Source: an uncultured Gemmatimonadaceae bacterium (GTDB taxonomy: Bacteria; Gemmatimonadota; Gemmatimonadetes; Gemmatimonadales; GWC2-71-9). From it: a stretch of 44,696 nucleotides of DNA. Location: the NCBI GenBank assembly GCA_964608715.1, contig CAZSPH010000002.1:6545-51240 (forward strand). The letters run 5' to 3'. The position numbers and the translations under genes are program-made. Of this stretch, positions 13,579 through 30,551 are shown one piece after another. The notes beneath the pieces were generated by a model. It worked only from the letters and a program-made list of their open reading frames with translations. It did not search any database and was not told where the DNA came from. Position 1 is the first letter of the stretch, and every line of letters starts with the position of its first letter.

Positions 13579-14590
13579 CGACGGCGTCGACACCGGCTGC
13601 TCATTCTCGGTGAGTGCTCCGGTTACGGAGCGGCTCGACCGCTTCCTCGCCGATCAGTTGCAGTGGTCGCGGACCCAGGCCGCCCGCATCGTCGCGGGAA
13701 AGCTGGTTGAAGTCGATGGCAAGGTTGCCCGGGCGTCCCGGACTATGGTTCGCGGTGACCTGGTCACCGTGCGTCCGCTTCCCGAAGCGGCCCCCCGCAG
13801 GCTTCTGCCCCACCATCTGCCGCTCTCGATCATCTACGAAGACGAACATCTGGCAGTGATCGACAAACCGGCCGGTCTGGTGGTGCATCCGGCCCCCGGC
13901 CACTGGAATGACACTCTGGTCAACGCCCTGGTGGCCCGGGGTACCACGCTTTCCGGCGGGGCCGAAGGACGGCCGGGGATTGTCCACCGGCTCGATCAGG
14001 ACACCAGTGGGGCAATGGTGGTTGCCCGCACCGACGAGGCCCATCGGAAGCTCGGAGCGATGCTGGCGGCCCGCCGGATCCATCGCACCTATGCGGCACT
14101 CTCCTGGGGGCATCTCGACGGCCCCCGGGTGATCGAGGCGTCGATCGACCGGCATCCCGTGGACCGCAAGCGGATGGCCATCCGGGAAGATGGCAGAACT
14201 GCCCGGACCGATGTCTTTCCGGCCGCCCGTCTCGGCCCGGTGGACCTGCTCCGCCTGGAACTCCATACCGGCCGCACCCACCAGATCCGGGTGCACCTCG
14301 AATCGATCGGTCATCCCGTGGTCGGTGACCGGGTCTACGGTGGCGGGGGGGCGAGGCGGATTTCCGGCCCCGAGCGGGCGCTGGCGAGGGCAGTCGACGA
14401 TGCCGCACCCAGGCAGGCACTTCACGCGGCCATTCTTGCTTTCCGCCATCCGGTTACCGGCGAGGACATGGTCTTCCGGGCCGCCTGGCCGGCGGACCTC
14501 CTTCCCCTGATGGAGCTGCTGGTGCCATCCGAGACTTTATCGGATCGGGAGGCAGTGCTGAGCAGCCTGGGGTTCCATCGGCGTGACTGA
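13559..14590 (+). CDS. rluD: RluA/RluD-family 23S rRNA pseudouridine synthase
   Basis: S4-like N-terminus (RLDRFLADQL), catalytic HRLDQDTSG, and TGRTHQIRVHL. The start is uncertain (13514 ORF start vs GTG 13559). Confidence 0.9.
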   Translation: MQPLPADDGVDTGCSFSVSAPVTERLDRFLADQLQWSRTQAARIVAGKLVEVDGKVARASRTMVRGDLVTVRPLPEAAPRRLLPHHLPLSIIYEDEHLAVIDKPAGLVVHPAPGHWNDTLVNALVARGTTLSGGAEGRPGIVHRLDQDTSGAMVVARTDEAHRKLGAMLAARRIHRTYAALSWGHLDGPRVIEASIDRHPVDRKRMAIREDGRTARTDVFPAARLGPVDLLRLELHTGRTHQIRVHLESIGHPVVGDRVYGGGGARRISGPERALARAVDDAAPRQALHAAILAFRHPVTGEDMVFRAAWPADLLPLMELLVPSETLSDREAVLSSLGFHRRD

Positions 14591-14945
14591 AGACCAGCTC
14601 TCCGGTGGCGGGTTGATCGCCCGGGCTGGCGGAGTGCGCTGGTTCGTACCGGTTGCCGGCGTCCTGGAGGTTCTCCGGGCGCCGGTCGTAGCCCGTGTTC
14701 CCGGCGCCCCGCCCGCTCTGCTCGGAGTGGTGAATCATCGGGGAAGGGTGCTGCCGGTGGCGGATCCGGTACGCGCGCTCGGGCTCTCCGGAGCCAGCGG
14801 GATCTCGGTCGAGGTGGTGGTCGTGGAGGGTGGCGGCCGCCGGTTCGGCATTGGTGTGGACGGCGTCGTGGAACTTGCTCCGGCCGCTCGCATGGGGCTT
14901 GCAACGATGGACCTCGACGCGGTCGCGGCCGCGATATTCGGTTGA
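14583..14945 (+). CDS. cheW: short CheW-like coupling protein
   Basis: CheW-domain pattern: WFVPVAGVLEVLRAPVVARVPGAPPALLGVVNHRGRVLPVADP ... FGIGVDGVVEL. Only ~120 aa. The GTG overlaps the rluD stop by 8 nt. Confidence 0.75.
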   Translation: MTEDQLSGGGLIARAGGVRWFVPVAGVLEVLRAPVVARVPGAPPALLGVVNHRGRVLPVADPVRALGLSGASGISVEVVVVEGGGRRFGIGVDGVVELAPAARMGLATMDLDAVAAAIFG

Positions 14946-14970
14946 CCGGTATTTCCTGGGAGAGCTGACT

Positions 14971-15336
14971 GTGGCACATCGGATCCTGATCTGTGACGAT
15001 GCGATCTTCATGCGGACGATGATCGCAGACATTCTGACCGGCGCGGGCTACGAGGTCGCCGGCGAGGCCGAGAGCGGCCTCCAAGCGGTCGATCGGTACA
15101 AGGCGCTCAAGCCCGATCTCGTCACGATGGACATCGTGATGCCGGACATGGGCGGCATCGATGCTGTCCGCGCCATCATCGAGATCGACCCGGATGCCCG
15201 GATCCTGATGTGCTCGGCGATGGGCCAGCAGCAGCTGGTGGTCGAGGCGGTGCAGGCCGGTGCGAAGGATTTCGTGGTGAAGCCGTTCCAGGCCACCCGC
15301 GTTCTGGAGGCGGTGAAGCGGGTCCTCGACGGGTGA
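14971..15336 (+). CDS. cheY: single-domain response regulator (CheY-like)
   Basis: ILICDDA (acidic pair), LVTMDIVMPDMGG (phospho-acceptor Asp), CSAMG and VVKPF (Lys). GTG 14971 follows GGGAGAG. The upstream extension to 14830 overlaps cheW and was not used. Confidence 0.92.
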   Translation: MAHRILICDDAIFMRTMIADILTGAGYEVAGEAESGLQAVDRYKALKPDLVTMDIVMPDMGGIDAVRAIIEIDPDARILMCSAMGQQQLVVEAVQAGAKDFVVKPFQATRVLEAVKRVLDG

Positions 15337-16829
15337 CCGACCAGCGGCGGGCGCGTTATCTGGCACTGTTCGCCGCCGAATCGCGGACCCTGCTGGCGGG
15401 CGCCCGCCGCTCGCTGCGTGACTGGGACGATGCCCCGGCAGATCCCGCCAACGGCGACGCCGTCTTCCGGGCATTGCACACCGTCAAGGGAATGGCAGCA
15501 TCGCTGGAGTTCCAGGACCTGGTTGAAGAGATCCACGCAGCCGAGACCGAACTGGCTGAACACCGCAGTGGCGCGTCGCTGGTATCAGCCGATTGGCTGG
15601 TTTCATTCGGCAGGATGCTGGACCGACTCTCGGTTGCAACTGAGAGTGCTGCCGGAACGGTTCCCGATGGCACGACATCGCGACCGGGCGCGACTACTCC
15701 CGTCGTGCGGGTCGACCTCTCCCGGCTCGACGCACTGCTCGACGAACTCGGTGGACTGGTGACTGCCAGGCAGGAGCTGGCCCGCCACGCTGCCGGCGAC
15801 CCCTTCCGTCCGGTTTCCCGTGCCGCGGTAGCGATGACCCGCCGGCTCGATGAGGTCCAGAACCGGATTCTGGACGTCCGCCTCGCTCCTCTCACCGAGA
15901 TCATGGAGCCGGTTCCGCCGATGGCCCGCGAACTGGCACGACACCTCGGCAAGGAGGTCACGGCAGAGATCACCGGTGACGAACTCGAAGTCGACCGGGG
16001 AATTCTTGCCGTTCTCCCTGATGCGATGATTCACCTGGTGCGGAACGCGATCGATCACGGTATCGAACCTCCCGGGGAGCGCCGTGCCGCAGGGAAGGGT
16101 GCGACCGGGCGGATCTCGATCCGGGCCCGACAGGATGGCGAGACGGTGGTCGTGACCATCTCCGATGACGGCCGGGGAATCGACCGGCGACGGGTGGCTG
16201 AAAGGGCGGTTGCTGCCGGGATACTTCAGTCCGGGGCAGAACTGGGCGATAACGATCTTCTGGGAGTACTCGCTCGGCCCGGTTTCTCGACTGCCGCTAC
16301 CGTTTCCGAGGTATCGGGGCGAGGGGTGGGCCTGGACACGGTGGTCGCAGGTCTGCACGGCGTAGGTGCTGCGCTGTCGCTCACCTCGGTGCCGGGACGC
16401 GGGTCGATCTTCACCATCCGGCTTCCGATGCGGGTCGGGATCGTGAAGGCGCTGGTGACGGGGATCGGGCCGGAACGGTACGTGATGCCGCTGACCCAGG
16501 TCAGTGAACTCGTAGCCTGGGATCCGGCCGCCGCACGGGTGGAAGGCGGTCGGACAGTGATGGATCTCCGCGGGGCCGATGTCCCGGTGGTGGATCTGCG
16601 ACGGCTGCTTCTCTTCCGGGGAGCGGCACCGCCGCCGCACCGTCCTGCGGTCGTCTGCGACATGCAGGGGCAGCGGATCGCCCTGATCGCCGACGAGATA
16701 GTCGGCCAGGTGGATGCCGTGGTGCAGGCGTTCGATCGACCTGCCGGACTGCCCCGGTGGGTGGGCGGTGCCACCGTACTCGATGACGGCAGACCGGCGC
16801 TGATGCTCGACCTGGCAGGTGTGATGTGA
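15333..16829 (+). CDS. cheA: CheA-type histidine kinase lacking a P2 domain (~498 aa)
   Basis: HPt motif FRALHTVKGMA, P3 (VRVDLSRLDALLDELGGLV), HATPase boxes HLVRNAIDHGIE / DDGRGID / GRGVGLD, and a C-terminal CheW-like P5. GTG 15333 overlaps the cheY stop (GTGA). Only ~25 aa link HPt to P3. Confidence 0.92.
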   Translation: MTDQRRARYLALFAAESRTLLAGARRSLRDWDDAPADPANGDAVFRALHTVKGMAASLEFQDLVEEIHAAETELAEHRSGASLVSADWLVSFGRMLDRLSVATESAAGTVPDGTTSRPGATTPVVRVDLSRLDALLDELGGLVTARQELARHAAGDPFRPVSRAAVAMTRRLDEVQNRILDVRLAPLTEIMEPVPPMARELARHLGKEVTAEITGDELEVDRGILAVLPDAMIHLVRNAIDHGIEPPGERRAAGKGATGRISIRARQDGETVVVTISDDGRGIDRRRVAERAVAAGILQSGAELGDNDLLGVLARPGFSTAATVSEVSGRGVGLDTVVAGLHGVGAALSLTSVPGRGSIFTIRLPMRVGIVKALVTGIGPERYVMPLTQVSELVAWDPAAARVEGGRTVMDLRGADVPVVDLRRLLLFRGAAPPPHRPAVVCDMQGQRIALIADEIVGQVDAVVQAFDRPAGLPRWVGGATVLDDGRPALMLDLAGVM

Positions 16830-16854
16830 CGCAAGAGAGAAAGGAGTTCTGCTC

Positions 16855-17481
16855 GTGACTGCTGTACTGAACGACCTCGATACGCTGAGACGCGATGGCC
16901 TGCGGGAGGTGGCCACGATTGGCGCCGGACATGCGGCCACCGCTCTCTCCCAGCTCACCGACCGGCGGATCATGATCTCGGTTCCGCAGGTGCGCCAGCT
17001 CGATTCCCGCTCGCTCCCGACAATGCTCTCCGGCTTCGGCGATCACGTCGCAGTCGTCAGCATGCGGATGCTGGGCGACCTCACCGGCCGGGCACTGCTG
17101 GTATTCAGCGAGCAGGATGCGGTGCGACTCTGTGATCTGATCCTCCGCCGTGTCCCCGGCCCGGTCAGGGCCCTGGGTGATCTCGAGCAGTCGGGGCTCA
17201 AGGAAGTGGGTAACATCGTCTGCTCCGCCTACCTCACCGCGCTCAGCAACTTCATGGGAATGATGCTCCTGCCGTCGGTTCCCGGACTGATGATCGGGCC
17301 GACCGGTCCGGCGGTGGAAAGCAGCCTGGATCCGGCCGACACCCCGGGCAACCTCGTCTTCTGTGTCGACACCGCGTTCCGGACTGACGGTGTTCCGGCG
17401 CAGCCGTTGACCGGAGCATTCCTGCTGATGCCGGACCGCGCATCGATCAGGGCAATCCTCGAGGCGATCAGGCTCGACTGA
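16855..17481 (+). CDS. cheC: CheC-family CheY-P phosphatase
   Basis: Two copies of the D/S-x3-E-x2-N-x22-P signature. The first is DGLREVAT..x22..P (Asn replaced by Thr). The second, SGLKEVGN..x22..P, is canonical. Confidence 0.85.
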   Translation: MTAVLNDLDTLRRDGLREVATIGAGHAATALSQLTDRRIMISVPQVRQLDSRSLPTMLSGFGDHVAVVSMRMLGDLTGRALLVFSEQDAVRLCDLILRRVPGPVRALGDLEQSGLKEVGNIVCSAYLTALSNFMGMMLLPSVPGLMIGPTGPAVESSLDPADTPGNLVFCVDTAFRTDGVPAQPLTGAFLLMPDRASIRAILEAIRLD

Positions 17482-17482
17482 G

Positions 17483-18619
17483 ATGGCCGACCGGGATGCC
17501 CTGGTCGGCGCACTTGCGGGTCGCTGTGATCCGGAACATGCCGCCACCCAGACCGGACTGGCCTGGTACGCCGGACGTCACGGTCACCAGCGCGTGGCAC
17601 TTGCTGCAGCGCGTGCTGCGGTCGCCGCAGCCGATCCTCCGGCGGCCGCCTGGACTGCGCTGGAGGCGCTGACCGCCGGCAGAACCGACCGTCTGGTACT
17701 TCCTGCGGACAGCGACACTGCTGCATCCGATCCCGAACCCCGCATTGCAGTCGCCGCCGGCGTCGAAGCTCACCGCCACGACGCATGGGTCGTGGCCGAG
17801 CTGTGCTACCGTGCCGCCATCGGCGACGACTGCTGCCGGGCCGCGGCAACTGCCAACCTGATGGCGCTCCACGAGCAGCGAGGTGAGGCGGCCCCCGCAG
17901 ATCGACTCTGGGAGACCGTCGCCGCTTCTCCCGGGTGGCATGCCCTTCACAATCGCGCTCTGGCCCTGGCGCGCCGGGGCAACGTCGGCGCTGCCAGAAG
18001 ACTGCTGGCCGGCCACCGCGATCCGGTGGTTGCCCACGCCGAACTCCTGTTCCTGGTCGGCTACCTGGCGCTGCTCGAAGGTGATGCCGCGGCCGGCCGT
18101 GTCGCGCTGGAGGCGGCGCTCTCCCGTGACGGGGCGCTTGCCAGGGCGCTGTTCGCGCTGGGCATCGCCTGCGATCAGCTCGACCGCCCGGGAGATGCCA
18201 TCAGCTCGATCCGCCGTGCTCTGGTCTCCTCACCATGGTTCGCTCCACAGGTATGGCTGCTGGCATTGCCGGATGGTGACGGCTGCGTCGAACAGCCTGC
18301 CTCGATCGTCGAGGGTGGAGTGGACGGTCCGACCGATCAGATTCTGCTGGCACTCGGACGGTCGCTGCTCTTCACCGGGCAGCAGGTGGAGGCGCTGGCG
18401 GTCTTCGACCAGGTGCTGCTGCGCAATCCCGATCATCCGGTCGCCCGGTATCACCGCGGGGTGGTACTCGCCAAGCTGCGCCGCTACGACGAGGCTCTGG
18501 GTGACTGGCAGCGGGTACGCGATGCCCTGCCGGGCGATGCGGAGCTGGCAGCGCTCGCTGCCCGCAGCGCGGCCTCGGCGGGACGGCTCGCCGAACTCTT
18601 CGCCGGTCCGGAGCGGTGA
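17483..18619 (+). CDS. TPR-repeat protein
   Basis: Ala/Leu-rich helical repeats with TPR-like periodicity (e.g. ALAVFDQVLLRNPDHPVARYHRGVVLAKLRRYDEALGDWQRV). The start lies 1 nt after the cheC stop. Confidence 0.7.
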   Translation: MADRDALVGALAGRCDPEHAATQTGLAWYAGRHGHQRVALAAARAAVAAADPPAAAWTALEALTAGRTDRLVLPADSDTAASDPEPRIAVAAGVEAHRHDAWVVAELCYRAAIGDDCCRAAATANLMALHEQRGEAAPADRLWETVAASPGWHALHNRALALARRGNVGAARRLLAGHRDPVVAHAELLFLVGYLALLEGDAAAGRVALEAALSRDGALARALFALGIACDQLDRPGDAISSIRRALVSSPWFAPQVWLLALPDGDGCVEQPASIVEGGVDGPTDQILLALGRSLLFTGQQVEALAVFDQVLLRNPDHPVARYHRGVVLAKLRRYDEALGDWQRVRDALPGDAELAALAARSAASAGRLAELFAGPER

Positions 18620-19527
18620 TGCACGGGCCTCTGCACGAGATAGGACTGGTCGAGGTCCTCCAGTTGCTGGAACGGGGAAGGCGCTCCGGTCGTCTCGTCG
18701 TAGTCGGTGGCCGTCACGACGAGCATCGAACGGTGGCGATCGACCGTGGCAGGATCGTCGATCTCCGCCCGCTCACCGAGGCGGATCTGCTGCTCCACCT
18801 CGCGATCCGGGCACTGGTACCTGCAGGGACGGTCCGTGCCTCTCCGGAACTGATGGCGATGGCGCGATGCGAGGTTGCAACCGCCGTTCTGCTGGACATG
18901 CTGACCTGGTCGGTCGGCCGGTTCGATTTCACGGCCGGCGAGGTTGAAGCCGGGCCACTGGACATCACTCCTTCGGGACTGATGATGCAACTGGTGGCAG
19001 GCGAATCGGCCCGGACCGAAACGGCTGAGGCTGTGGGCAGTTTTGCCGCGGTACCTCGTTTTGCTTCCGTCGCGGAGATTGCGGGCGGTACACCACTGAT
19101 GCTGGACAATCTCGACTGGCGGATTCTCGACCGGATCGATGGTCGTCGCGATATCGCCGCGCTCGCCCGTGAACTCATGGAGCCGGTCGAGTCGGTCGCC
19201 CGGCGGTCACTGCGGCTTGCTGCTGCCGCTATAATTCATCTCGACATGCCTGCCGGCGATTCCGTTGCCAGGGCCAGAGCGGTGCTCGATCAGGGCGATG
19301 CCGTGGCGGCCATCGGGATCCTGGCGGAACGGGTGGCTGCAGCCCCGGAGGATGGAGAGGCTTGGCGATGGCTCGGCTTTGCCGAATTGCGGATGGGCAG
19401 GATCGATCGGGCATCCGCTGCGTGGCGGGCCTGGGTGAACGCTTCCCCGGTCCACCATTTCGAAGCAGCGCCGCTGCTCGCCGCCGCCGAAACGATGATG
19501 GAAGCACTGCGAGGAGCCGGTGACTGA
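18616..19527 (+). CDS. DUF4388/PATAN-type N-domain protein with C-terminal TPR-like region
   Basis: N-terminus GPLHEIGLVEVLQLLERGRRSGRLVV ... GRFDFTAGE matches the DUF4388 pattern. Mid-region NLDWRILDRIDGRRDIAALAREL looks like a small winged-helix-like segment. GTGATG overlap with the upstream gene. Confidence 0.7.
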   Translation: MMHGPLHEIGLVEVLQLLERGRRSGRLVVVGGRHDEHRTVAIDRGRIVDLRPLTEADLLLHLAIRALVPAGTVRASPELMAMARCEVATAVLLDMLTWSVGRFDFTAGEVEAGPLDITPSGLMMQLVAGESARTETAEAVGSFAAVPRFASVAEIAGGTPLMLDNLDWRILDRIDGRRDIAALARELMEPVESVARRSLRLAAAAIIHLDMPAGDSVARARAVLDQGDAVAAIGILAERVAAAPEDGEAWRWLGFAELRMGRIDRASAAWRAWVNASPVHHFEAAPLLAAAETMMEALRGAGD

Positions 19528-20275
19528 TATCGCAGGTCCGTTGTCCGGCGCTGATCCGGAACCCGCCTTCCTGGAGCTGGGAGAGCGACTCCGTCAGCGC
19601 GGCCAGCTCGAGGCCGCGCTCAGCGTGGCGATTGCCGGAGTCACCCGCCACCCGCAGCTTGCCGCCGCTCACGATCTGGTCGGAAGGGTACGCGCCGATC
19701 AGGGCGACGATGCCAGTGCGCGCCAGGCCTGGCTTGCCGCGCTCGAATGCGAATCCGGTCATCCCGGCGCCCTCAAGGGACTCGCCTTTCTCGCCTTCCG
19801 CAATCACGACCTCGCCGAGGCTGAGCGACGCCTGGAGCAGGCGGTCCGCAGCAGTCCGGGGGATGCGGGAGTGGTCGGCGCACTCGATCGTGTCAGGGCA
19901 GCCCGGAATGCGGACAACGAAGTGGTCCGGATCGAGGATGGTGCCCACGGACTTCTGCTGGTCGATCGTGACGGATACCGACTCGTGGGAGATGCCAGGC
20001 TCGACCACGAAGACGATCGGTCGCCCGACCTTCTGGCCGCCGATGCGGCAGCGGCGGCCCGCGAAGCTGTCCGGCTCTCGCGGCTGCTGGAACTGGGAGA
20101 ATGGCAGTCGCTGGTGGTAGAGAGTCGACGGCAGCGGGCCGCAGTGGTACCGGTACGGCACGATGCGACACTGCTGCTCAGGCGCTCGCCGCTCGCCCCG
20201 GTCGGGCGGCTGATGGCGGTGGCCCGCCGCGCCGCCGTGGTCGCGGGCGAATGGATCGATCGGAACGTCGCATGA
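19520..20275 (+). CDS. TPR (N-terminal) - Roadblock/LC7 (C-terminal) fusion protein
   Basis: N-terminal TPR-like helices (RQRGQLEAALSVAIAGVTRHPQLAAAHDLVGRV...). The C-terminal ~110 aa show a Roadblock pattern (GLLLVDRDGYRLVG ... AAAAAREAVRLSRLLELGEWQSLVVESRRQRAAVVPV). Confidence 0.65.
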   Translation: MTDIAGPLSGADPEPAFLELGERLRQRGQLEAALSVAIAGVTRHPQLAAAHDLVGRVRADQGDDASARQAWLAALECESGHPGALKGLAFLAFRNHDLAEAERRLEQAVRSSPGDAGVVGALDRVRAARNADNEVVRIEDGAHGLLLVDRDGYRLVGDARLDHEDDRSPDLLAADAAAAAREAVRLSRLLELGEWQSLVVESRRQRAAVVPVRHDATLLLRRSPLAPVGRLMAVARRAAVVAGEWIDRNVA

Positions 20276-20610
20276 ACGGATGGTTGCCCAGACTCCGGAG
20301 CGCTGCCGGTGTGGCCGGAGTGCGCGCCGTCTTTCTCGTCTCCTCCGATGACGGCCTGATGGTGCAGGAGGTTTCCCGTGACGAGGCGGACGTCGCCGCC
20401 GCCGCTGCACTGGTCGCATCGCTGGTGCGTCGCTCTGCGACGCTCGCAGGCGACCCTCCCGATACCATCACCCTGGCCGCTACTTCAGGCACCGTGATCG
20501 CCGTCGACGCGGGGGACTCGCTCTGGCTGGCAGCCCTGGCCGCGCCGGGAGCCGAACTGGGGCGGCTGCGTCTGGTGCTCGGCGATCTCGCTGCCGGGAT
20601 CGACCGGTGA
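20272..20610 (+). CDS. Roadblock/LC7 domain protein (MglC/MglB-paralog-like, 112 aa)
   Basis: VAGVRAVFLVSSDDGLMVQEV ... AAAAALVASLVRRSATLAG ... ITLAATSGTVIAVDAGDSLWLAALA. ATGA overlap with the upstream gene. Confidence 0.7.
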   Translation: MNGWLPRLRSAAGVAGVRAVFLVSSDDGLMVQEVSRDEADVAAAAALVASLVRRSATLAGDPPDTITLAATSGTVIAVDAGDSLWLAALAAPGAELGRLRLVLGDLAAGIDR

Positions 20611-21071
20611 GAGTACTGCACGACTGGCTCGCCGCGCCGCTCGACGAACTGGTGCGCGAAACCGGTGCGCGCTTCGCACTGGTCACCGGCAGTTTCGGGC
20701 AGGTGATCGGACAGCACGGCTTCACCCGATCGCTCGACGTGATGGCTGCAGCATCGCTCGCGGCCGGCATCGTTGCCACCACGCGCGAAGTCGGCAGCAT
20801 GGTGGGATCCCCGGGAGGATTCGGAGCCATCGCTCATCAGGGCATCGGCCACGGCGTCTGGCTGGAACCCATCAGGTCGCCGCACGGTGACTGGATTCTC
20901 CTGGTCGCCTTCGGTGAGGAATCGACCGTCGGACTGGTCCGTCTCTTCTCGGAGCGATTCGTCCGGGCCATCTCGGCAGTGGGACCTCGTGGCGACAGCA
21001 GGGAACTCCTGGCCGAAGGGTTCGAGCGGGAACTGGACGCTTCTCTGCGTGCACTTTTCGAGGGCAACTGA
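20607..21071 (+). CDS. mglB: MglB-like Roadblock/LC7 protein (putative GTPase-activating partner)
   Basis: Aligns without large gaps to my recollection of M. xanthus MglB: FALVTGSFGQVIGQHG..LDVMAAASLAAGIVATTREVGSMVG...HQG..HGVWLEPI...ILLVAFGEESTVGLVRLFSERF...ELDASLRALF. Lies directly upstream of the MglA-like gene, as in mglBA. Confidence 0.75.
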   Translation: MRVLHDWLAAPLDELVRETGARFALVTGSFGQVIGQHGFTRSLDVMAAASLAAGIVATTREVGSMVGSPGGFGAIAHQGIGHGVWLEPIRSPHGDWILLVAFGEESTVGLVRLFSERFVRAISAVGPRGDSRELLAEGFERELDASLRALFEGN

Positions 21072-21072
21072 A

Positions 21073-21672
21073 GTGGCCCGGGTCGATCACGGAGAAGGGA
21101 AGCTCTCGGCGACGCTGCTGGTGGTCGGATGTCGGGCCAGTGGCCGCAGCATGATGATGGAGGCTGTCAGGCGGCGCGTCTCCGCGCACCGGATCGTCGG
21201 CGGTGGTTCCGGTGATGACGCACCATTCGACTGGCTGGTGCTGGATCTCGGTCGGGTGGGTGGCTGGCAGGTTGCCGTCCGGCTGGTTGCCGTGCCGTCG
21301 CTGGCCGCGCAGTCCGACGTGCGCCGGACGTTGATCGGCGAAGCGGATGGAATCGTTCTGATTGTCGACTCGCTCGCGGGCCGGATAGACGACAATCTCG
21401 AGACCATCCGGCAGCTCCAGGAGGATCTGATCGCCGGCGGCGTCGACCCGCGCGAGATCCCGCAGGTCTACCTCTATTCCAAGCAGGACCTTCCCGGGGA
21501 TCTGATACTGCCGGTGGAGGCGCTCGACGCGACGCTGAATTTCCGCAGCGTTCCGAGTCGCGGCGGCGATCTGCTCCGGGGTACCGGTGTGGTGGAATCG
21601 GTACAGCGACTCGTCTCCATGGTAATGGGCCGGCACGCGACGACTCCCTCCCCGGACGGGTCGCAATGCTGA
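21073..21672 (+). CDS. MglA-like Ras-superfamily small GTPase fold with degenerate G1/G2/G3/G4 motifs (probable pseudo-GTPase)
   Basis: Collinear with MglA: LLVVGCRASGRS (vs VYYGPGLCGKT), PFDWLVL (vs FFDFLPL), AVPSL (vs TVPGQ), GIVLIVDS (vs GVVFVADS), YSKQDLP (vs YNKRDLP). GTG 21073 lies 1 nt after the mglB-like stop. Confidence 0.7.
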   Translation: MARVDHGEGKLSATLLVVGCRASGRSMMMEAVRRRVSAHRIVGGGSGDDAPFDWLVLDLGRVGGWQVAVRLVAVPSLAAQSDVRRTLIGEADGIVLIVDSLAGRIDDNLETIRQLQEDLIAGGVDPREIPQVYLYSKQDLPGDLILPVEALDATLNFRSVPSRGGDLLRGTGVVESVQRLVSMVMGRHATTPSPDGSQC

Positions 21673-23621
21673 ATGCCCACGCCACCTTCGATGCCTTCGT
21701 GGTCGGTTCGTCCAACCGGCTCGCGGTCACCGCATCGAAGGCCGTCGCCGAATCCCCCGGTGCTGCCTACAATCCGCTCTTCATCTACGCCCGTCCGGGA
21801 CTCGGCAAGACTCATCTCCTGATGGCGATCGGCCACGAGGCCAGGCGCGTCGATCAGGGGCGCACGATCGAGTATGTGACGGTGGACGACTTCGTCGAGG
21901 CCTACCAGGCAGCTCTCGCTGCCGGACAGGCCGAAGCCTACCGCCGGCGCTTCATCGGGGCGGATCTGGTGCTGATAGATGACGCCCAGTTGCTTGCCGA
22001 TCGGCGCGAACTTCAGTCCGAGCTGCTCCGCCTGATCGATCAGCTCATGGCTGCCGATCGACAGATAGTACTCGCCGGCGACCGGCCGCCCGAGGAAATC
22101 CAGCAGCTCGATGAACGGCTGATCCGGCGTTTCGGCGGCGGTCTGGTGATCGACATCGCTGCTCCCGACTACGAGACCAGGCTTGCCATTCTCGGTCGGC
22201 GGGCACGCGACCGGCATATCGATCTTCCGGCCGAGACGCTGGCCATGGTTGCGGAACTGCCGATCGGGACCGTGCGTGAACTGATCGGAGCGCTCAACCG
22301 GCTGGCTGCGCAGCAGGCCGTGCAGACCGAACGACTCGAGGTCGGGCAGGCGCGTCGTCTGCTCGAGGCGCTCGGTCACCGGGTTCCCGAGCAGAATGCC
22401 GGGAAGGTGCGTGCTGAAGCAGTGGCAGTGCCCGAAGTGACAGTGGAGCGGGATGAGTTCGGCGATTTCCTGAGTGATCTCACCGCCTCGGTTGCCCGCA
22501 GAGTCGACAGCTGGCGCCAGCGCATAACCGAGGCCTCGCTCCGCTGGTCGGCGGAGGGATTCAGGACCGGGCGACTCGATGCCGCACTGAGTGGCGATCT
22601 TCCCGATGATCCCGAGGAGATCCTGCAGGGATTCGAGCGGGATGTCGCGGCGCTGCGCGGCCTGCAGCAGGAACTCGCGGTGGCGGCACCGGAGCTTCTC
22701 TCCGAGGCACTGCTGTACGATCCCGATCGCCTGGCCAATGCGATCGAACTGGTTGCGGATGCGCGTGAGGCCGGAGCACCACCTCCCGGGCCGTCGCCCC
22801 GGTATCATCTCGACAGCTTTTCGGTGGGCGCCTCCACCCGATCGGCAGTCGCGGCAATCCACGCTGCCGCCGCTGCACCCGGCAGTCGCTACAATCCGGT
22901 GGTTCTGGTCGGCAGGAGTGGCGAAGGAAAGACCCACCTCCTTCACGCCTTCGGCCTGGCACTGCAGGAGCAGGGCCTCCGCCGCGTTGCGGTGATGGAT
23001 GGACGGACCTTCGTGGCCGATCTGGTGACCGCACTGGGCGACGGTACGGTAACCAGATGGCGGCATCGGCTGCGCCGGGTCGATGCCCTGCTGATCGACG
23101 ATGTCGACTCCCTCGCAGGCAAGGATCGCAGCCAGGAGGAACTGTACCTCCTCTACAACATCCTGGTCGAGTCGGGACGTCAGATGGCCTTCACCTGTTC
23201 GGTGCCGCCGGCCCAGCAGGCAGGACTCGAACCTCGTCTGGCCACCAGACTGGGCGCTGGTCTGGTCGTTTCGCTGGGCCCCCCGGATCGCGAGGCGCGG
23301 ATCACCGAGGTCGAGCGGTTGCTGGGAGATGCTGCACTCGATCCCGAACTGGTCGACTACCTGGCAGGGCGGCCCGCTGCGTCGATCCGCGAACTGCAGC
23401 AGCTCGTCAACCGCGTTGCCGCTGCCGCCGATGAACGGGGACTCCCTCTCTCGCTTGCTGTGGCTCGCCGGATACTCGAAGGGGCCACCGTTGCGGATCA
23501 GAGACCGCCCCGTCGCGGCAGCGGACTGGTCGCTCCGGGTGGCGGAGCACTCAGATCACGTGAGAAGATGATCGAGACCTGGCCCACTCCATCCGAACGG
23601 CTGATCGGGGAGTGGCGCTGA
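21666..23621 (+). CDS. tandem double DnaA/Hda-type AAA+ ATPase, no DnaA domain I/II or domain IV
   Basis: Module 1 (aa ~5-235): FDAFVVGSSNRLA, Walker A RPGLGKTHL, Walker B LVLIDDAQ, RLIRRFGGGL, TVRELIGALNRL. Module 2 (aa ~390-610): LDSFSVGASTRSA, GRSGEGKTHL, ALLIDDVDSLAGKDRSQEEL, RLATRLGAGL, SIRELQQLVNRV. A ~150-aa linker separates them, and no HTH-like C-terminus is seen. Confidence 0.8.
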   Translation: MLNAHATFDAFVVGSSNRLAVTASKAVAESPGAAYNPLFIYARPGLGKTHLLMAIGHEARRVDQGRTIEYVTVDDFVEAYQAALAAGQAEAYRRRFIGADLVLIDDAQLLADRRELQSELLRLIDQLMAADRQIVLAGDRPPEEIQQLDERLIRRFGGGLVIDIAAPDYETRLAILGRRARDRHIDLPAETLAMVAELPIGTVRELIGALNRLAAQQAVQTERLEVGQARRLLEALGHRVPEQNAGKVRAEAVAVPEVTVERDEFGDFLSDLTASVARRVDSWRQRITEASLRWSAEGFRTGRLDAALSGDLPDDPEEILQGFERDVAALRGLQQELAVAAPELLSEALLYDPDRLANAIELVADAREAGAPPPGPSPRYHLDSFSVGASTRSAVAAIHAAAAAPGSRYNPVVLVGRSGEGKTHLLHAFGLALQEQGLRRVAVMDGRTFVADLVTALGDGTVTRWRHRLRRVDALLIDDVDSLAGKDRSQEELYLLYNILVESGRQMAFTCSVPPAQQAGLEPRLATRLGAGLVVSLGPPDREARITEVERLLGDAALDPELVDYLAGRPAASIRELQQLVNRVAAAADERGLPLSLAVARRILEGATVADQRPPRRGSGLVAPGGGALRSREKMIETWPTPSERLIGEWR

Positions 23622-25237
23622 TGGCGATCAAGGGATCACTCCGTGAAGCATCACTTGCCGATGTAGTCCAGCTTCTGTTCCTCGGTCGCCGTACCGGCTG
23701 TCTGGCGGTGGCGGGTGATCGCAATTTCGGATCGATCTGGTTCGACGACGGCTGGATCGTTTTCGCCGGACTCGTCTCCCGCCAGGATCGACTCGGTGAG
23801 CGTCTGGTGTCGGCAGGGCGGCTGAACCGCAGCCAGCTCGAACAGGCCATTGCCGCGCAGCAGGCCGTTCCCGGCCGCAAGCTTGGTGCAGTGCTCCGCC
23901 AGCTCGACCTTCTGACGTCGACCGAACTCGATGCCGAGATCACCAGGCAGGTCGAGGAGACGATCTTCACTCTCTTCACCTGGACCGCGGGGACGTTCTC
24001 GTTCGAAGCTGACGTTCTTCCGGACGACCCCGAAGTGACGGTGAGGCTGAACCCTGAGGGACTGCTCCTCGAAGGTGCACGACGGGTCGACGAATGGAGC
24101 GTCATCGCGAAGAAGATCCCTTCGCTCGATGCCGTGTTCGCAATCGAAGGAGACGAGCGCAAGACCGGCGAGGCGCTCGGTCTGGTCGAAATGGAGCTGG
24201 CAGTATTTCCGCTGATCGACGGTCGCCGCACCGCGCGCGAGATTCAGGAGATCTGCGGCCTCACCGAATTCGAGATCAGCAGGGTGCTGTACGGACTCCT
24301 GTCGGCGGGACGGATCAGGCGGACTGCCACGGTCTCCCGGCAACAGGTACCCGGGGACGAAACCCGTCTGGCCGAACATCGCAATCTCGGCATTGCGTTC
24401 TATCGCAGCGGGATGCTGGGTGAGGCCGAGCGAGAGTTCCGTCGGGTCGCAGAGATCAGACCTCAGGATGCCGAGGCTCACTATCATCTCGGTTGCATAG
24501 CAGTGCAGTCGGGCCGCGCCGAAGCTGCGATCGATTCCTTCGAGTCGGCAGTCGTCGCCGGCGGGAGGAAGCCGGTGGTACTGCATGACCTGGCACTGGC
24601 GCTGGAAGTAGCGGGGCGCCTCGACGACGCGGCAGTGGTGCTGGCTGAAGCTGCCGAAGCGGGTCGCGGCGACCATCGGATCTGGATGGACTGGGGCCTC
24701 CTGGCACTGAGACGCAATGAGAGCAGCATTGCGCTCGACCGGCTGGCCCGTGCCCGCGAACTGATCGGAGATGGCGCTGCACCTGCCCGCTGGTACTGGG
24801 GCTGCGCCTGGGCCCAGGCATTGGGGGAGGCGTGGACCGATGCCGTTGCCACTGCCCGCGAGGGAGTCGCCGCACATCCCGCTCACGCCGTGCTCAGGTC
24901 CACTCTCGGCGTGCTGCTGGAGGCCACCGGAGAAGTGGGCGAAGCGGAGGCGCAACTGCGACACGCGCTGGGCGAGGACCCCACCATTCCGCAGATCAGC
25001 AAGAATCTGGGTGACCTGTTCTATCGCGCGGCGCGCTGGGACGAGGCCGAAGAGTCCTATCAGCGGACGGCGGCGCTGGCCCCCGATCTCGGCGACGATC
25101 TCTACTTCCGGCTCGGCAATCTCGCCTGCCGCCGGGGGGACCTGGCTGCGGCCCGTTCACACTGGGAGCGGGCCCTCACGATCAATCCTGAGCACGCACT
25201 CGCGCGTGCCAACCTCGCCGGGGCGGGGGGGCAATGA
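23612..25237 (+). CDS. DUF4388/PATAN-type N-domain + winged-helix-like segment + multi-TPR protein
   Basis: IKGSLREASLADVVQLLFLGRRTGCLAV ... GTFSFEAD (DUF4388 pattern), VFPLIDGRRTAREIQEICGLTEFEISRVLYGLLSAGRI, then >=6 TPR-like repeats. An alternative ATG lies at 23621 (TGATG overlap). Confidence 0.75.
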   Translation: MALMAIKGSLREASLADVVQLLFLGRRTGCLAVAGDRNFGSIWFDDGWIVFAGLVSRQDRLGERLVSAGRLNRSQLEQAIAAQQAVPGRKLGAVLRQLDLLTSTELDAEITRQVEETIFTLFTWTAGTFSFEADVLPDDPEVTVRLNPEGLLLEGARRVDEWSVIAKKIPSLDAVFAIEGDERKTGEALGLVEMELAVFPLIDGRRTAREIQEICGLTEFEISRVLYGLLSAGRIRRTATVSRQQVPGDETRLAEHRNLGIAFYRSGMLGEAEREFRRVAEIRPQDAEAHYHLGCIAVQSGRAEAAIDSFESAVVAGGRKPVVLHDLALALEVAGRLDDAAVVLAEAAEAGRGDHRIWMDWGLLALRRNESSIALDRLARARELIGDGAAPARWYWGCAWAQALGEAWTDAVATAREGVAAHPAHAVLRSTLGVLLEATGEVGEAEAQLRHALGEDPTIPQISKNLGDLFYRAARWDEAEESYQRTAALAPDLGDDLYFRLGNLACRRGDLAAARSHWERALTINPEHALARANLAGAGGQ

Positions 25238-26073
25238 AGATCGGAATCGAGCGGTTCGTCGCCGAGCACCGTCGACTGGTGGATCGCCTGGCCGGTCCGC
25301 TGCCACCGGAGGAACGGCAGGCGGTACGGCAGGAGATCATCGCACTCTTCCGTTCCACCGAGCAGGCAATCGAAGAACTGACCGGGTTCAAGGAAACGAT
25401 CCGCGATCTGGTCGAACGGTTCAAGGCCCTGCCGGATGAAGCCGCTGCCACGGCTTCCGTGGTGCATGATCATCTCGGTGCATCCACGATGCTGGAGCAG
25501 GGCTGGAGTGCGCTGGCCCGCGGCGAGTGGTCGGAGGCCGAGCGGCTGCTGGAGCAGGCGTTGCGGCTCGATCCGCATGCTCCGAATACCGAGGCACTGC
25601 TGGGCTGGGCGCTGATGCATCAGGGCAGGGGAGACGATGCGCTGCAGCACTGTCTCAGTGTTCTGCTCCGGGACCCCGGGAACGGTCTGGCCCGCACCGC
25701 AGTGGGAGCGATCTGCCTGCAGAAGGGAATCGCGGGGGAGGCGATCGAGCACCTCACCAGGGTGGTCCGGCACGGCGGCGATCCCAGAGCCGGGTTGTAT
25801 GCCCAGTACTGGCTGGGTGTCGCCTATCTCGAGCGCGATATGCCGCGTGATGCCATCGATGCGCTGCAGCGCGCGGTGTCCTCCGGCCCCAACCTCGCCG
25901 AGGCCTGGGCGGAACTCGGACGGGCGCTCTGGCGTTCCGGTCTGCATGAAGAGGCACGAACCGCCTGGAATCGGGGCAGTGCCATCCGCTTCTCGCCCTT
26001 TGCCGAACGGTCACGCGAGCTGCTCCAGATGACCGAGGCCGGAAGGATACCGCCACGCTCGCCACTTTCCTGA
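25234..26073 (+). CDS. coiled-coil + TPR-repeat protein
   Basis: TPR-like repeats (EAERLLEQALRLDPHAPNTEALLGWALMHQGRGDDALQHCLSVLLRDPGN...). ATGA overlap with the upstream gene. Confidence 0.7.
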   Translation: MKIGIERFVAEHRRLVDRLAGPLPPEERQAVRQEIIALFRSTEQAIEELTGFKETIRDLVERFKALPDEAAATASVVHDHLGASTMLEQGWSALARGEWSEAERLLEQALRLDPHAPNTEALLGWALMHQGRGDDALQHCLSVLLRDPGNGLARTAVGAICLQKGIAGEAIEHLTRVVRHGGDPRAGLYAQYWLGVAYLERDMPRDAIDALQRAVSSGPNLAEAWAELGRALWRSGLHEEARTAWNRGSAIRFSPFAERSRELLQMTEAGRIPPRSPLS

Positions 26074-26126
26074 TCCTGCTCGCCCAGCTCGGTGGTCCTC
26101 CCACCGATCGTCCGGTTCCTTTCGAC

Positions 26127-27008
26127 GTGCAGGGAGTGGCAGTGGTTGCGCCGGAGAGATACCGGCAACTGGGTCGCTCGCTGGCCGAGATTGCCGCAGT
26201 GCCACGGGAGTGGACCGGCCTGGGGTGGACCGATCTGACTCCATTCACGCTGGTGATAGTTCCCGATGCCGCTGGAATGCAGCGCTGGTCCCGCGGCGCG
26301 CTCCCGGCATGGAGTGCCGGGGCGGCGTTGCCGGCGCGTCGGACGGTGGTGATCCGGGCTGATGCCGGCACGCCGTACCAGACGATGAGACACGAACTCG
26401 CTCATCTCGCTTTCCATTCCCGCATCGATCAGCGCGTTCCGCTGTGGTTCAGCGAGGGCTACGCCGTGCTGGCTGCCGGCGAGATGGGACGGCTGGCCTC
26501 TCTGCAGCTCAATCTGGCAGTCGCACTCGGCAGGGTGGGTTCACTCCGGACGGTGGACGCGGCGCTCAGGAGCGGGCCGAACGATGCCGCCGCCGCATAC
26601 GCGATGGCCGGGGCGGCGGTGGCTGAAGTGGCGAGAAGGAATCCCAGCGGGTCGCTGCTGCCCATTCTTTCCCGGATGGAGAGCGGCGAGTCGTTCCACG
26701 ACGCGCTGGTTGCCACTACCGGGTTCGATCCCGAGTCCTTCGACGAGGCCTGGGTACTGTCCACCAGGCGGAGCTACAGTCTTGGTCTCTGGCTGATTGC
26801 TGGCGGCGGGTGGCTGATTCTGGCACTGCTGCTGGGGGTCGGGGCCTCGCTCCGGAGGCGTCGCGACGTACCCCGCCGGCAGGCGCTGAACCATGGCTGG
26901 GACTTGCCGGCCGAAGAGCCGGAGGGGGAGTTCCCCGGGGCAGCCGGGCAGCCGCTCCCGACGGCTGAGCATGACGAAACACCCGCAGGCAGGATGACGG
27001 TTCGATGA
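26127..27008 (+). CDS. MA-clan (Peptidase_MA_2-like) zinc metallopeptidase with C-terminal TM anchor
   Basis: HELAH zinc motif followed by WFSEGYAVLAAGE (third-ligand Glu context), and a C-terminal TM LGLWLIAGGGWLILALLLGVGA followed by RRRRD. The start is uncertain. Confidence 0.7.
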   Translation: MQGVAVVAPERYRQLGRSLAEIAAVPREWTGLGWTDLTPFTLVIVPDAAGMQRWSRGALPAWSAGAALPARRTVVIRADAGTPYQTMRHELAHLAFHSRIDQRVPLWFSEGYAVLAAGEMGRLASLQLNLAVALGRVGSLRTVDAALRSGPNDAAAAYAMAGAAVAEVARRNPSGSLLPILSRMESGESFHDALVATTGFDPESFDEAWVLSTRRSYSLGLWLIAGGGWLILALLLGVGASLRRRRDVPRRQALNHGWDLPAEEPEGEFPGAAGQPLPTAEHDETPAGRMTVR

Positions 27009-29313: not shown

Positions 29314-29349
29314 CACCCCGCCCGGTTCGCCGCGCGGGGTGTTTCTTTT
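29314..29349 (+). terminator. intrinsic (rho-independent) terminator after tRNA-Asp
   Basis: Perfect 8-bp GC-rich stem CACCCCGC (29314-29321) / GCGGGGTG (29334-29341) with a 12-nt loop, followed directly by TTTCTTTT (29342-29349). Confidence 0.6.
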
Positions 29350-29356
29350 CCGGGTC

Positions 29357-30352
29357 ATGATGTCCGACACCGTTCCATCTCCATCTCACCTCCCCGTCCT
29401 GCTCGATGCCGTGGTTGCACTGGCAGCCGGATCGCGGCGGGCAGTGGACGCCACCCTCGGGCATGGCGGTCATGCCGCAGCACTCCGTGCCTGCGGAGCC
29501 ATGGTGCTGGGAATCGATCGGGACCCGGACGCGCTGGCCATAGCCCGGGCGCGGCTGGGGGACGAGGGAGTCACCTTCCTGGAGGCTGCGTTCTTCTCGC
29601 CCGAGGCGGCAGCGGCCGTCGCCACCTTCCGGCCCGACTTCATCCTGATGGACCTGGGTGTCTCCTCCCGTCAGCTCGATGACGAGACCCGCGGGTTCAC
29701 CTTCCGGCCCGGCGCCCCGCTCGACATGCGGATGGAAGGGGCAGGGATGTCCGCGGCCGACTGGCTGAACGAGGCCGATGCGGAGGAGCTTGCGGCGGCA
29801 CTCCGCAACTGGGGGGACGAACCACGGGCGCCGAGACTGGCGTCGGAGATCATCCGCCGTCGGCGTACGGTGCCATTCGCCACCAGCGATGATCTGGTGA
29901 ACGCGATCCGGGCGGTGCTGGGGCCTCGCAGTGGCCCCGGCGATTTCGCCCGGATCTTCCAGGCGGTCAGGATCGAGGTCAACGGTGAACTCGATGGGCT
30001 CCGTGAGGTCCTGCCCCGGTTCCGCGATGCCCTGGTGCCCGGTGGCCGGCTGGTGGTGATCAGCTATCATTCGGGTGAAGATCGTCTCGTCAAGCATGCA
30101 TTCCGCGAATGGAGCAGTGGGTGCGTCTGTCCCCCCCGTATACCCCGATGCATCTGCGGCGTCACCGCTTCCGGATCGCTGTACCCGCGCAAGGCCCTGA
30201 CTCCCGATGACGCCGAGATCGCAGCCAACCCGCGCGCGCGGAGCGCGAGGCTCCGTGGCTTCCGCTTGGCGGATGCAGCCCCGGGGGAGGTACCTGGTGG
30301 TGGCGTGGACGGCATTCTTCCTGGTGGTATTCGGGACCATCGCGGTGCGTGA
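29357..30352 (+). CDS. rsmH: 16S rRNA (cytosine1402-N4)-methyltransferase
   Basis: HLPVLLDAVV, DATLGHGGHA, LMDLGVSSRQLD, VISYHSGEDRLVK and NPRARSARLR. ATG 29357 was chosen because the 29339 start lies inside the terminator hairpin and T-tract. Confidence 0.92.
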   Translation: MMSDTVPSPSHLPVLLDAVVALAAGSRRAVDATLGHGGHAAALRACGAMVLGIDRDPDALAIARARLGDEGVTFLEAAFFSPEAAAAVATFRPDFILMDLGVSSRQLDDETRGFTFRPGAPLDMRMEGAGMSAADWLNEADAEELAAALRNWGDEPRAPRLASEIIRRRRTVPFATSDDLVNAIRAVLGPRSGPGDFARIFQAVRIEVNGELDGLREVLPRFRDALVPGGRLVVISYHSGEDRLVKHAFREWSSGCVCPPRIPRCICGVTASGSLYPRKALTPDDAEIAANPRARSARLRGFRLADAAPGEVPGGGVDGILPGGIRDHRGA

Positions 30353-30551
30353 CCGTCGTGCCTTTGCCGTGGCCCGTCGAGTGACTGCCCTCGAGGACTC
30401 GCTGAACGTGGTGGCGAGGATGCACGGTGATCTGGCCGCAGAGCTGGCGAATCTGCAGAGTCCCGGGGCGCTGACCGAACTCGGCGAACGTCTGGGATTG
30501 CGTCCCCCCAAGGACAGCGAACTTCTCACGGTCGTCGTGACGGGACCCTGA
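30297..30551 (+). CDS. ftsL: FtsL-like cell-division protein (single TM + coiled coil)
   Basis: The position between rsmH and ftsI fits FtsL. TM AWTAFFLVVFGTIAV is followed by a coiled-coil-like RRVTALEDSLNVVARMHGDLAAELANL. GTG 30297 follows GGGGGAGG by 6 nt. Alternative ATGs lie at 30207 and 30273. Overlaps the rsmH 3' end. Confidence 0.55.
   Translation: MVAWTAFFLVVFGTIAVRDRRAFAVARRVTALEDSLNVVARMHGDLAAELANLQSPGALTELGERLGLRPPKDSELLTVVVTGP

Follow-up and report, generated by a model that had tools for sequence, protein, structure and literature searches.

A candidate pseudo-GTPase derived from MglA, encoded beside an MglB-like Roadblock gene in a conserved locus of Gemmatimonadales

Can a bacterial small GTPase lose its catalytic residues and still be maintained next to the gene for its partner protein? 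This question is raised by a gene encoding an MglA-like protein of 199 amino acids (aa) in a 44,696-nucleotide (nt) stretch of DNA (the whole of which is hereafter referred to as the window) from an uncultured Gemmatimonadaceae bacterium (GenBank assembly GCA_964608715.1, contig CAZSPH010000002.1, positions 6,545 to 51,240 of the forward strand). MglA and MglB are the model pair for the control of bacterial polarity by small GTPases. An earlier note on the window, made from the sequence alone, had described the protein as an MglA-like GTPase with nearly all catalytic residues replaced, and had proposed a scaffold or locked-state role together with an MglB-like partner. The analysis reported here, including a profile alignment, substitutions shared among orthologues, the selection analysis and the retention of a constrained MglB-like partner, supports that proposal. 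The protein is probably a non-cycling pseudo-GTPase adaptor that binds the MglB-like Roadblock protein, as judged from sequence. The two genes at the centre of the analysis are as follows (coordinates are those of the window).

21073-21672, forward strand: candidate pseudo-GTPase derived from MglA, 199 aa (homology, predicted fold, purifying selection)
20607-21071, forward strand: MglB-like Roadblock protein, 154 aa, with a D/E-rich C-terminal helix (PDB, NCBIfam and Pfam matches)

Homology, predicted fold and degenerate motifs

A phmmer search of the MglA-like protein against all PDB sequences retrieved MglA proteins only, including those of Myxococcus xanthus (E=5e-16) and Thermus thermophilus (E=5e-14). 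A tblastn search with an MglA query covered residues 4-188 (E=3e-20), and a profile built from 15 members of the clade described below spanned residues 1-194 of MglA structures (E=1.4e-39) with the P-loops in register. These results bore out the MglA homology claimed for 21073-21672. The AlphaFold2 model, computed from a 27-sequence alignment, had a mean predicted local distance difference test score (pLDDT) of 91.7 and a predicted template-modelling score (pTM) of 0.87, and its 14 top matches in a Foldseek search against PDB were all MglA, with template-modelling (TM) scores of 0.78-0.89. The closest of these were MglA-GTPgammaS structures with or without MglB (6h5b_A, 6izw_A, 6h17; TM 0.84-0.89, root-mean-square deviation (rmsd) 2.2-2.6), whereas GDP-form MglA structures matched slightly less well (rmsd 2.6-3.3). 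By homology and by its predicted G-domain fold, the protein belongs to the MglA family. No Pfam or NCBIfam model matched it at E<0.1 when both libraries were scanned, and it would thus be missed by standard annotation.

The segments in which the protein departs from, or retains, the MglA motifs are listed below.

21127-21150, forward strand: degenerate P-loop G19-C-R21-A-S-G24-R25-S26, GPGLCGKT in MglA (alignment, clade motif counts)
21214-21234, forward strand: remnant of the switch-I/arginine-finger loop, D48-D49-A-P-F-D-W54 (alignment)
21226-21252, forward strand: interswitch strand beta2, F52-D-W-L-V-L-D-L-G60 (clade conservation)
21289-21303, forward strand: switch-II remnant A73-V-P-S76-L77, TVPGQ in MglA (alignment)
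21478-21489, forward strand: G4 motif S136-K-Q-D139, NKRD in MglA (alignment, clade counts)

The P-loop reads GCRASGRS, with Arg25 encoded by CGC at 21145-21147, and departs from the G1 pattern GxxxxGK[ST] in that Lys25 is replaced by Arg, while both glycines and the Ser are present. In place of TVPGQ, the G3 segment is AVPSL (P75-S76-L77 at 21295-21303) and has lost the catalytic Gln. The G4 segment, Y-S136-K-Q-D139, has the Lys and Asp of [NT]KxD and a Ser as its first residue. These three readings of the earlier note were confirmed, as was the equal length of the VP..VDS segment, which is 27 residues in the window protein and in MglA. The gapless alignment from the P-loop to the VDS motif that it had also described did not hold: the loop between helix 1 and strand 2, which carries the arginine finger, is 5 residues shorter than in MglA, and the numbering of the two proteins, in register at the P-loop, is shifted by 5 at FDW/FDF. 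The D-R-T arginine finger of Group-1 MglA is missing, and the aligned positions are D48/D49. The loss of Arg and Thr at the finger positions therefore stands, but the exact pairing of R53 with D48 and of T54 with D49 depends on where the gap is placed. The sole Arg of the shortened loop, R40, pairs with MglA K43, outside the finger position. A rigorous profile alignment revealed no Lys/Thr P-loop, Arg-Thr switch I or G-Q switch II elsewhere in the protein. At the level of sequence, the window protein is a Group-1 MglA homologue that fails four defining motifs of that group.

The gene starts with GTG, 1 base past the TGA that ends the upstream gene, and it overlaps the downstream gene by 7 nt (ATGCTGA), which span its own stop and the ATG of that gene; the 1-nt gap and the 7-nt overlap suggest co-translation with the flanking genes. 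The N-terminus MARVD/MARLD was kept in all homologues. Two antisense open reading frames (ORFs), at 20872-21666 (reverse strand, 264 aa) and 21474-23066 (reverse strand, 530 aa), overlap the module genes; both have a base composition like that of coding frames and were read as shadow ORFs typical of GC-rich DNA.

The degenerate clade and its selection

The degeneracy is shared by 98 distinct relatives, which were collected by an exhaustive search, a genome scan and a profile search. A first, word-indexed homologue search had returned 6 proteins only, and the clade became visible after the exhaustive and profile searches. The 14 genome-derived loci were all from Gemmatimonadales or from Gemmatimonadota metagenome-assembled genomes, and the source names existing for other proteins agree.

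Both P-loop glycines (G19 and G24) and the G4 residues K142 and D144 were present in 98/98 sequences, P-loop-degenerate members included in the case of G4. The position of MglA G21 (Ras G12) was Gly in none of the 98. Position 25 was Lys in 92, Arg in 5 and Ala in 1, and position 26 was Ser or Thr in 95 and Arg in 3. R53 and T54 were essentially absent across the 98, with no conserved Arg or Thr in that loop. The position of MglA F59 was Trp in every sequence (98/98; Trp54 of the window protein), and that of T78 was Ala in 91/98. G81 was kept in 16/98 and Q82 in 47/98, and the position of N141 was occupied by Thr (59), Ser (18), Asn (17) or Ala (4). In the canonical MglA loci that were fetched, GPGxxGKT, DRTLFFDF, TVPGQ and NKxDLP were near-invariant in all.

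The sub-clade with Arg at position 25 had four members: the window protein and, at 62-89% identity, three orthologues in which the same substitutions were found. At least four lineages within the clade, among them the window sub-clade, lost the P-loop Lys or Ser/Thr. P0015 acquired the Lys-to-Arg change independently of this sub-clade, the Lys was replaced by Ala in P0316, and Ser/Thr26 was replaced by Arg in P0311, P0317 and P0331. The sub-clade also carried acidic or Ser residues at the former R53/T54 positions. An alignment-based metagenome scan yielded canonical MglA loci only and no further member of the Lys-to-Arg sub-clade, which is represented by four sequences plus the independent P0015. 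As far as the sequences indicate, the window protein is the most degenerate end of a graded series found throughout Gemmatimonadales.

Ratios of nonsynonymous to synonymous substitution (dN/dS; Nei-Gojobori) were 0.12-0.28 for the degenerate MglA within the sub-clade, unlike those of a pseudogene, and 0.05-0.12 and 0.09 for the neighbouring MglB-like and AAA+ genes, respectively. Arg25 was encoded by CGC, CGC, CGG and AGG in the four orthologues, i.e., by three different codons, and the codons of the P-loop glycines varied synonymously among them too. In canonical modules, MglA was the most conserved gene, with a median pairwise identity of 78.5% compared with 46-56% for its neighbours, whereas in degenerate modules it was the least conserved, with 47% compared with 69-73%. 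Within the degenerate clade, strand beta2 (LLDWLPLDLG) was the most conserved segment (mean identity 0.89) and the former arginine-finger loop the least conserved (0.41). Constraint on the degenerate MglA, as read from these alignments, is relaxed and shifted from the catalytic loops to beta2, but is not lost. The window protein has three of the properties by which pseudoGTPases are recognized: a G-domain fold in the predicted structure, loss of the catalytic motifs in its sequence, and maintenance by selection.

That the gene is a pseudogene in decay, or an ORF arising by chance in GC-rich DNA, might be suggested by the lack of Pfam and NCBIfam matches, by the long overlapping antisense ORFs and by in-frame stops in a related locus. 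This reading is excluded by the conservation data: 98 distinct intact homologues of constant length, dN/dS well below 1, the conserved MARVD/MARLD N-terminus, fixed synteny and a confident fold prediction. In the related locus (L023, CAWKMI010000024.1, ~10001-10621), the degenerate MglA contains in-frame stops or a frameshift, which reflects either misassembly or a real loss confined to a single lineage.

The MglB-like partner and the conserved locus

The earlier note had placed an MglB-like gene directly upstream, and matches to PDB MglB (E=1.4e-6 to 2e-6) and to the NCBIfam MglB model (E=2.5e-7, a match well under the equivalog cut-off) substantiated this. The match to Pfam Robl_LC7 was 22.2 bits, just under the 23-bit cut-off. 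The protein retains positions common to the MglB of canonical modules, including small residues of helix alpha2, and its acidic C-terminal helix FExELDxxLxxLF is conserved, so that MglB homology and the acidic helix occur together in the upstream protein. Constraint on this gene was unchanged: its median identity was 73% in degenerate modules (69-70% for its neighbours) and 46% in canonical modules (49-56%). To look for a residue that might act in trans, the MglB-like proteins encoded in degenerate modules were compared with those in canonical ones. Helix alpha2, which we take to be the MglA-contacting helix, had gained no invariant Arg, Gln or Asn, and the only newly conserved residue of these types, R117, was located in the last helix.

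The other genes of the module and the Che genes preceding it were as follows.

14583-17481, forward strand: CheW, CheY, CheA and CheC, directly upstream of the module (synteny with related locus L001 and 14 Gemmatimonadales genomes)
17483-18619, forward strand: TPR protein (Pfam, synteny)
18616-19527, forward strand: PATAN (DUF4388/PatA_N) and TPR protein (Pfam)
19520-20275, forward strand: TPR and Roadblock fusion, 251 aa (Robl_LC7 24.9 bits, TPR)
20272-20610, forward strand: second small Roadblock-like protein, 112 aa (weak Robl_LC7 match, E=0.0067, on a longer ORF; gene call in related locus L005; conserved in related loci)
21666-23621, forward strand: tandem DnaA-type AAA+ protein, 651 aa, with two Bac_DnaA modules and without the DNA-binding domain IV
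23612-25237, forward strand: PATAN and TPR protein, 541 aa (Pfam, related loci)
25234-27008, forward strand: TPR and Peptidase_MA_2 proteins, the last of the conserved block

The same gene order was found in the window and in 14 Gemmatimonadales genomes. It begins with IleRS, a DksA-type zinc finger protein, LspA, RluD, CheW, CheY, CheA and CheC, continues with TPR, PATAN-TPR, TPR-Roadblock, Roadblock, MglB-like and degenerate MglA genes, and proceeds through the tandem DnaA-type AAA+, PATAN-TPR, TPR, Peptidase_MA_2 and TPR genes to the dcw cluster (RsmH, FtsI, MurE). In the window, the dcw cluster (with a PASTA domain in FtsI) lies at 29339-33966 on the forward strand, ~2 kb past the module, and it is a conserved neighbourhood in the Gemmatimonadales loci. 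The three Roadblock genes at 19520-21071 (forward strand) stand in a row, with stops and starts that overlap or abut, and their adjacency suggests a multi-Roadblock platform. Of the genes of the block (~12.7-34 kb) that were scanned with Pfam, none was seen to encode a receptor, CheB or CheR; the input or output of this Che pathway may thus be unusual.

In the tandem AAA+ protein, residues 1-224 matched DnaA domain III (E=7e-51) and residues 389-590 were Hda-like, with a Walker A motif in both halves. No published description of such a tandem protein was found. P0023, a metagenome protein of 277 aa in which a canonical MglA runs into a DnaA-like N-terminus, is probably a frameshifted assembly, yet it shows the adjacency of the two genes. 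The product of a further gene of the window, at 6458-8773 (forward strand), is 771 aa long and contains a TMEM260-like protein O-mannosyltransferase domain (E=3e-37).

Two variants of the locus carried a canonical MglA, and in all three variants the tandem AAA+ gene was directly downstream of the MglA gene. The second variant, seen in ~30 metagenome loci, was the same module, flanked by CheC, with an MglB-like gene and a fully canonical MglA. The third, found in Gemmatimonadaceae, Gemmatimonas sp. and Gemmatimonadota genomes, consisted of PATAN, canonical MglA, tandem AAA+ and PATAN-TPR genes, occupied the same position between IleRS-RluD-Che and TPR-Peptidase_MA_2, and added CheD-CheB-CheW. 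In its examples (L104, JAWVHD010000116.1, 8816-16585; L043; L054), the canonical MglA gene came right after the PATAN gene, and no Roadblock or MglB gene was present within 20 kb. The degenerate gene is thereby the positional orthologue of a canonical Group-1 MglA and not an extra paralogue at a new site. Set side by side, a GAP-type partner (GAP, GTPase-activating protein) is kept beside the GTPase that looks dead and is absent, in the third variant, where the GTPase looks alive. In a neighbour-joining tree, the degenerate clade stood on a long branch beside other divergent sequences; this placement was treated as long-branch attraction, and orthology was based on synteny instead. No canonical or second MglA gene was found in the 44.7-kb window or within +-10 kb in 14 related genomes.

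Possible function and relation to known systems

Loss of the residues described above would most likely abolish GTP hydrolysis, so that the MglB-like neighbour would be unable to switch the protein off. The protein would be held in an on-like, beta2-flipped form and would probably bind the MglB-like Roadblock dimer constitutively, through the conserved beta2/interswitch surface and the acidic C-terminal helix of the partner. As an adaptor, it would bridge the Roadblock proteins to the tandem DnaA-like AAA+ ATPase and the PATAN-TPR proteins, with switching left to the adjacent Che phosphorelay or to the AAA+ ATPase. In M. xanthus, the C-terminal helix of MglB binds MglA in a pocket made up of beta2, alpha5 and the loop between beta2 and beta3, and it does so in any nucleotide state through a stabilised, flipped beta2 strand, which forms the MglB-binding surface (PMC6785124). 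MglB inserts no residue into the active site and only moves Arg53 and Thr54 in (PMC6876712). Since both residues are missing from the window protein and MglB merely repositions them, an MglB-type GAP would have nothing to act on. The MglB-binding mechanism can thus, to judge from the sequences, persist while the known GAP mechanism has no substrate.

Several points weigh against the proposal of a non-cycling adaptor. Residue loss by itself is no proof of lost activity, and binding to the MglB-like protein is predicted from gene adjacency and conservation only. The slightly closer match of the model to GTP-state structures is weak evidence for an on-like shape, and K181 and K185 of M. xanthus alpha5, which contact the C-terminal helix of MglB, correspond to Gln and Ser in the window protein. 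The G4 Lys/Asp, both P-loop glycines and Ser/Thr26 are conserved, and about half of the clade keeps Gln82, so that relatives whose GK[ST] is intact, at least, may still behave in a nucleotide-dependent manner. Moreover, P-loop and G4 mutants of M. xanthus MglA are unstable (PMC3000849); a nucleotide-free MglA fold would therefore need compensating changes, and none was identified.

Whether nucleotide is bound has to be considered separately from hydrolysis. The poor nucleotide binding expected in the earlier note is uncertain, as Lys-to-Arg is the mildest possible change at this position, and the sequences tip slightly towards a guanine nucleotide still being bound as a structural cofactor. 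This is favoured by the invariant G4 Lys/Asp, the P-loop glycines, Ser26, the conservative Lys-to-Arg replacement and the instability of the M. xanthus mutants, and is disfavoured by the repeated independent losses of P-loop Lys or Ser/Thr. The opposite reading, a nucleotide-free scaffold (class-i pseudoGTPase) in which Arg21/Arg25 and the acidic residues 48/49 fill or close the pocket and the protein is a purely structural subunit of a Roadblock complex, is possible but less probable. It would account for the replacement of P-loop Lys or Ser/Thr in at least four lineages, suggesting that phosphate/Mg binding is dispensable, for the loss of the switch-I Thr throughout the clade and for the acidic or Ser residues at the R53/T54 positions in the sub-clade. 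It is harder to reconcile with G4 Lys/Asp, G19 and G24 in all 98 sequences and Lys25 in 92 of them. Lys-to-Arg changes often preserve nucleotide binding in P-loop NTPases, e.g., RecA K72R, which weighs against such a scaffold. So does the instability of canonical MglA without nucleotide (PMC3000849).

The retention of three Roadblock genes can also be read as a sign of a re-wired, active GTPase, with catalytic residues supplied in trans by Roadblock/TPR partners or by other residues in cis. Most of the clade has an intact GxxxxGK[ST] and [NT]KxD, with Gln82 in 47/98, and a Gln or Arg supplied in trans is known in other small GTPases and has been discussed for Rup (PMC4316618). The window protein, however, lacks Lys25, Gln82 and G21, and substitution at the Ras G12 equivalent lowers hydrolysis and makes it insensitive to GAPs (PMC3000849). 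GAPs of the MglB type insert no residue (PMC6876712), the MglB-like protein shows the new R117 in its last helix and no new invariant Arg, Gln or Asn in alpha2, MglA is the fastest-evolving gene of the module, and the ex-catalytic loop is its least conserved part; re-wiring is therefore very improbable. The protein might instead tune a working canonical MglA encoded at another site, as a decoy or regulator that takes up the MglB-like GAP or competes for effectors; this would be in line with the frequent regulation of active relatives by pseudoenzymes (PMC10211241). Gemmatimonas aurantiaca has two Group-1 MglA genes, GAU_1115 (MglB>MglA>) and GAU_1409 (PATAN>MglA>-PATAN>), so that extra copies are possible in the phylum (Table S2, PMC4316618). 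Such a role is nonetheless improbable, given that no canonical mglA was found in the window or within +-10 kb in the 14 related genomes and that the degenerate gene sits at the very locus of the canonical MglA of relatives, which points to replacement over addition.

More speculatively, Gemmatimonadales may have turned the MglA switch into a nucleotide-independent subunit locked on a three-protein Roadblock platform, a Ragulator-type counterpart that couples the Che phosphorelay to a tandem DnaA-like AAA+ ATPase controlling polarity or division; the module adjoins the dcw cluster, and budding morphologies have been reported in the phylum Gemmatimonadota. We regard this extended version as unlikely. 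If it were true, the MglB fold would have a GAP-independent function, and the sister lineage would have gone the opposite way, with a live GTPase and all Roadblock genes dropped from the locus.

The non-cycling adaptor, our preferred reading, has consequences of its own. If the degenerate protein still binds the MglB-like protein, the interaction of MglA with MglB serves more than GTPase activation, and the clade would represent an MglA-derived bacterial pseudoGTPase with a traceable stepwise origin. The three variants of the locus amount to a natural experiment at a single orthologous site: canonical MglA and MglB, canonical MglA without Roadblock genes, or degenerate MglA with three Roadblock genes. 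The locus also constitutes an undescribed conserved module in which Che signalling, PATAN and Roadblock proteins are linked to a tandem DnaA-like AAA+ ATPase. The survey of the prokaryotic Ras superfamily recognized five MglA groups and reported a conserved arginine finger in every Group-1 member, GTPGQ as the motif of Groups 2-5 and PATAN genes as only occasional neighbours; it mentions no degenerate group and no DnaA-like neighbour (Wuichet & Sogaard-Andersen 2014, PMC4316618). A full-text literature search on MglA found no description of the degenerate clade or of the module. The existence of pseudoGTPases is established for eukaryotes, and their reported range extends from bacteria to human (PMC12490416, PMC10211241).

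With Group-1 MglA of M. xanthus and T. thermophilus (PMC4316618), the window protein shares its predicted fold, full-length homology, a position just downstream of an MglB-type Roadblock gene, the beta2/interswitch motif, the ADG...DS..R..N core, the xKxDLP G4 region and PATAN neighbours, as noted for some Group-1 members. It differs in the absence of the P-loop Lys, the G21 equivalent, the arginine finger, the switch-I Thr and the Gly-Gln of TVPGQ, in an arginine-finger loop 5 residues shorter than in canonical MglA and in much faster evolution. The actinobacterial conservons (CvnA-D; Group-2 MglA) likewise join an MglA-family protein with a Roadblock protein and a signalling kinase in one conserved operon; CvnD, however, is an active GTPase with GTPGQ, and its partners are a sensor histidine kinase and DUF742, in contrast to CheA/CheY/CheC, PATAN-TPR and the tandem DnaA-like AAA+ protein of the window locus. 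The Rag GTPase-Ragulator/LAMTOR complex and other Roadblock-GTPase platforms also combine several Roadblock proteins encoded with a small G-domain protein, and the parallel suggests that such a protein is held by a stable platform of Roadblock proteins. The resemblance is architectural only: the Rags are active heterodimeric GTPases, and evidence for heterodimerisation or a membrane anchor is absent at the window locus. The eukaryotic pseudoGTPases (CENP-M, Rnd1/3, RhoH, the pG domains of p190RhoGAP, and AAGAB; PMC10211241, PMC12490416, PMC5593906) have in common with the window protein a G-domain fold with degenerate G motifs that is kept by selection, and are used for protein-protein interaction or as constitutively 'on' regulators. 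The window protein, a candidate by its sequence, differs from them in being bacterial, derived from MglA and still paired with its cognate GAP-type Roadblock partner.

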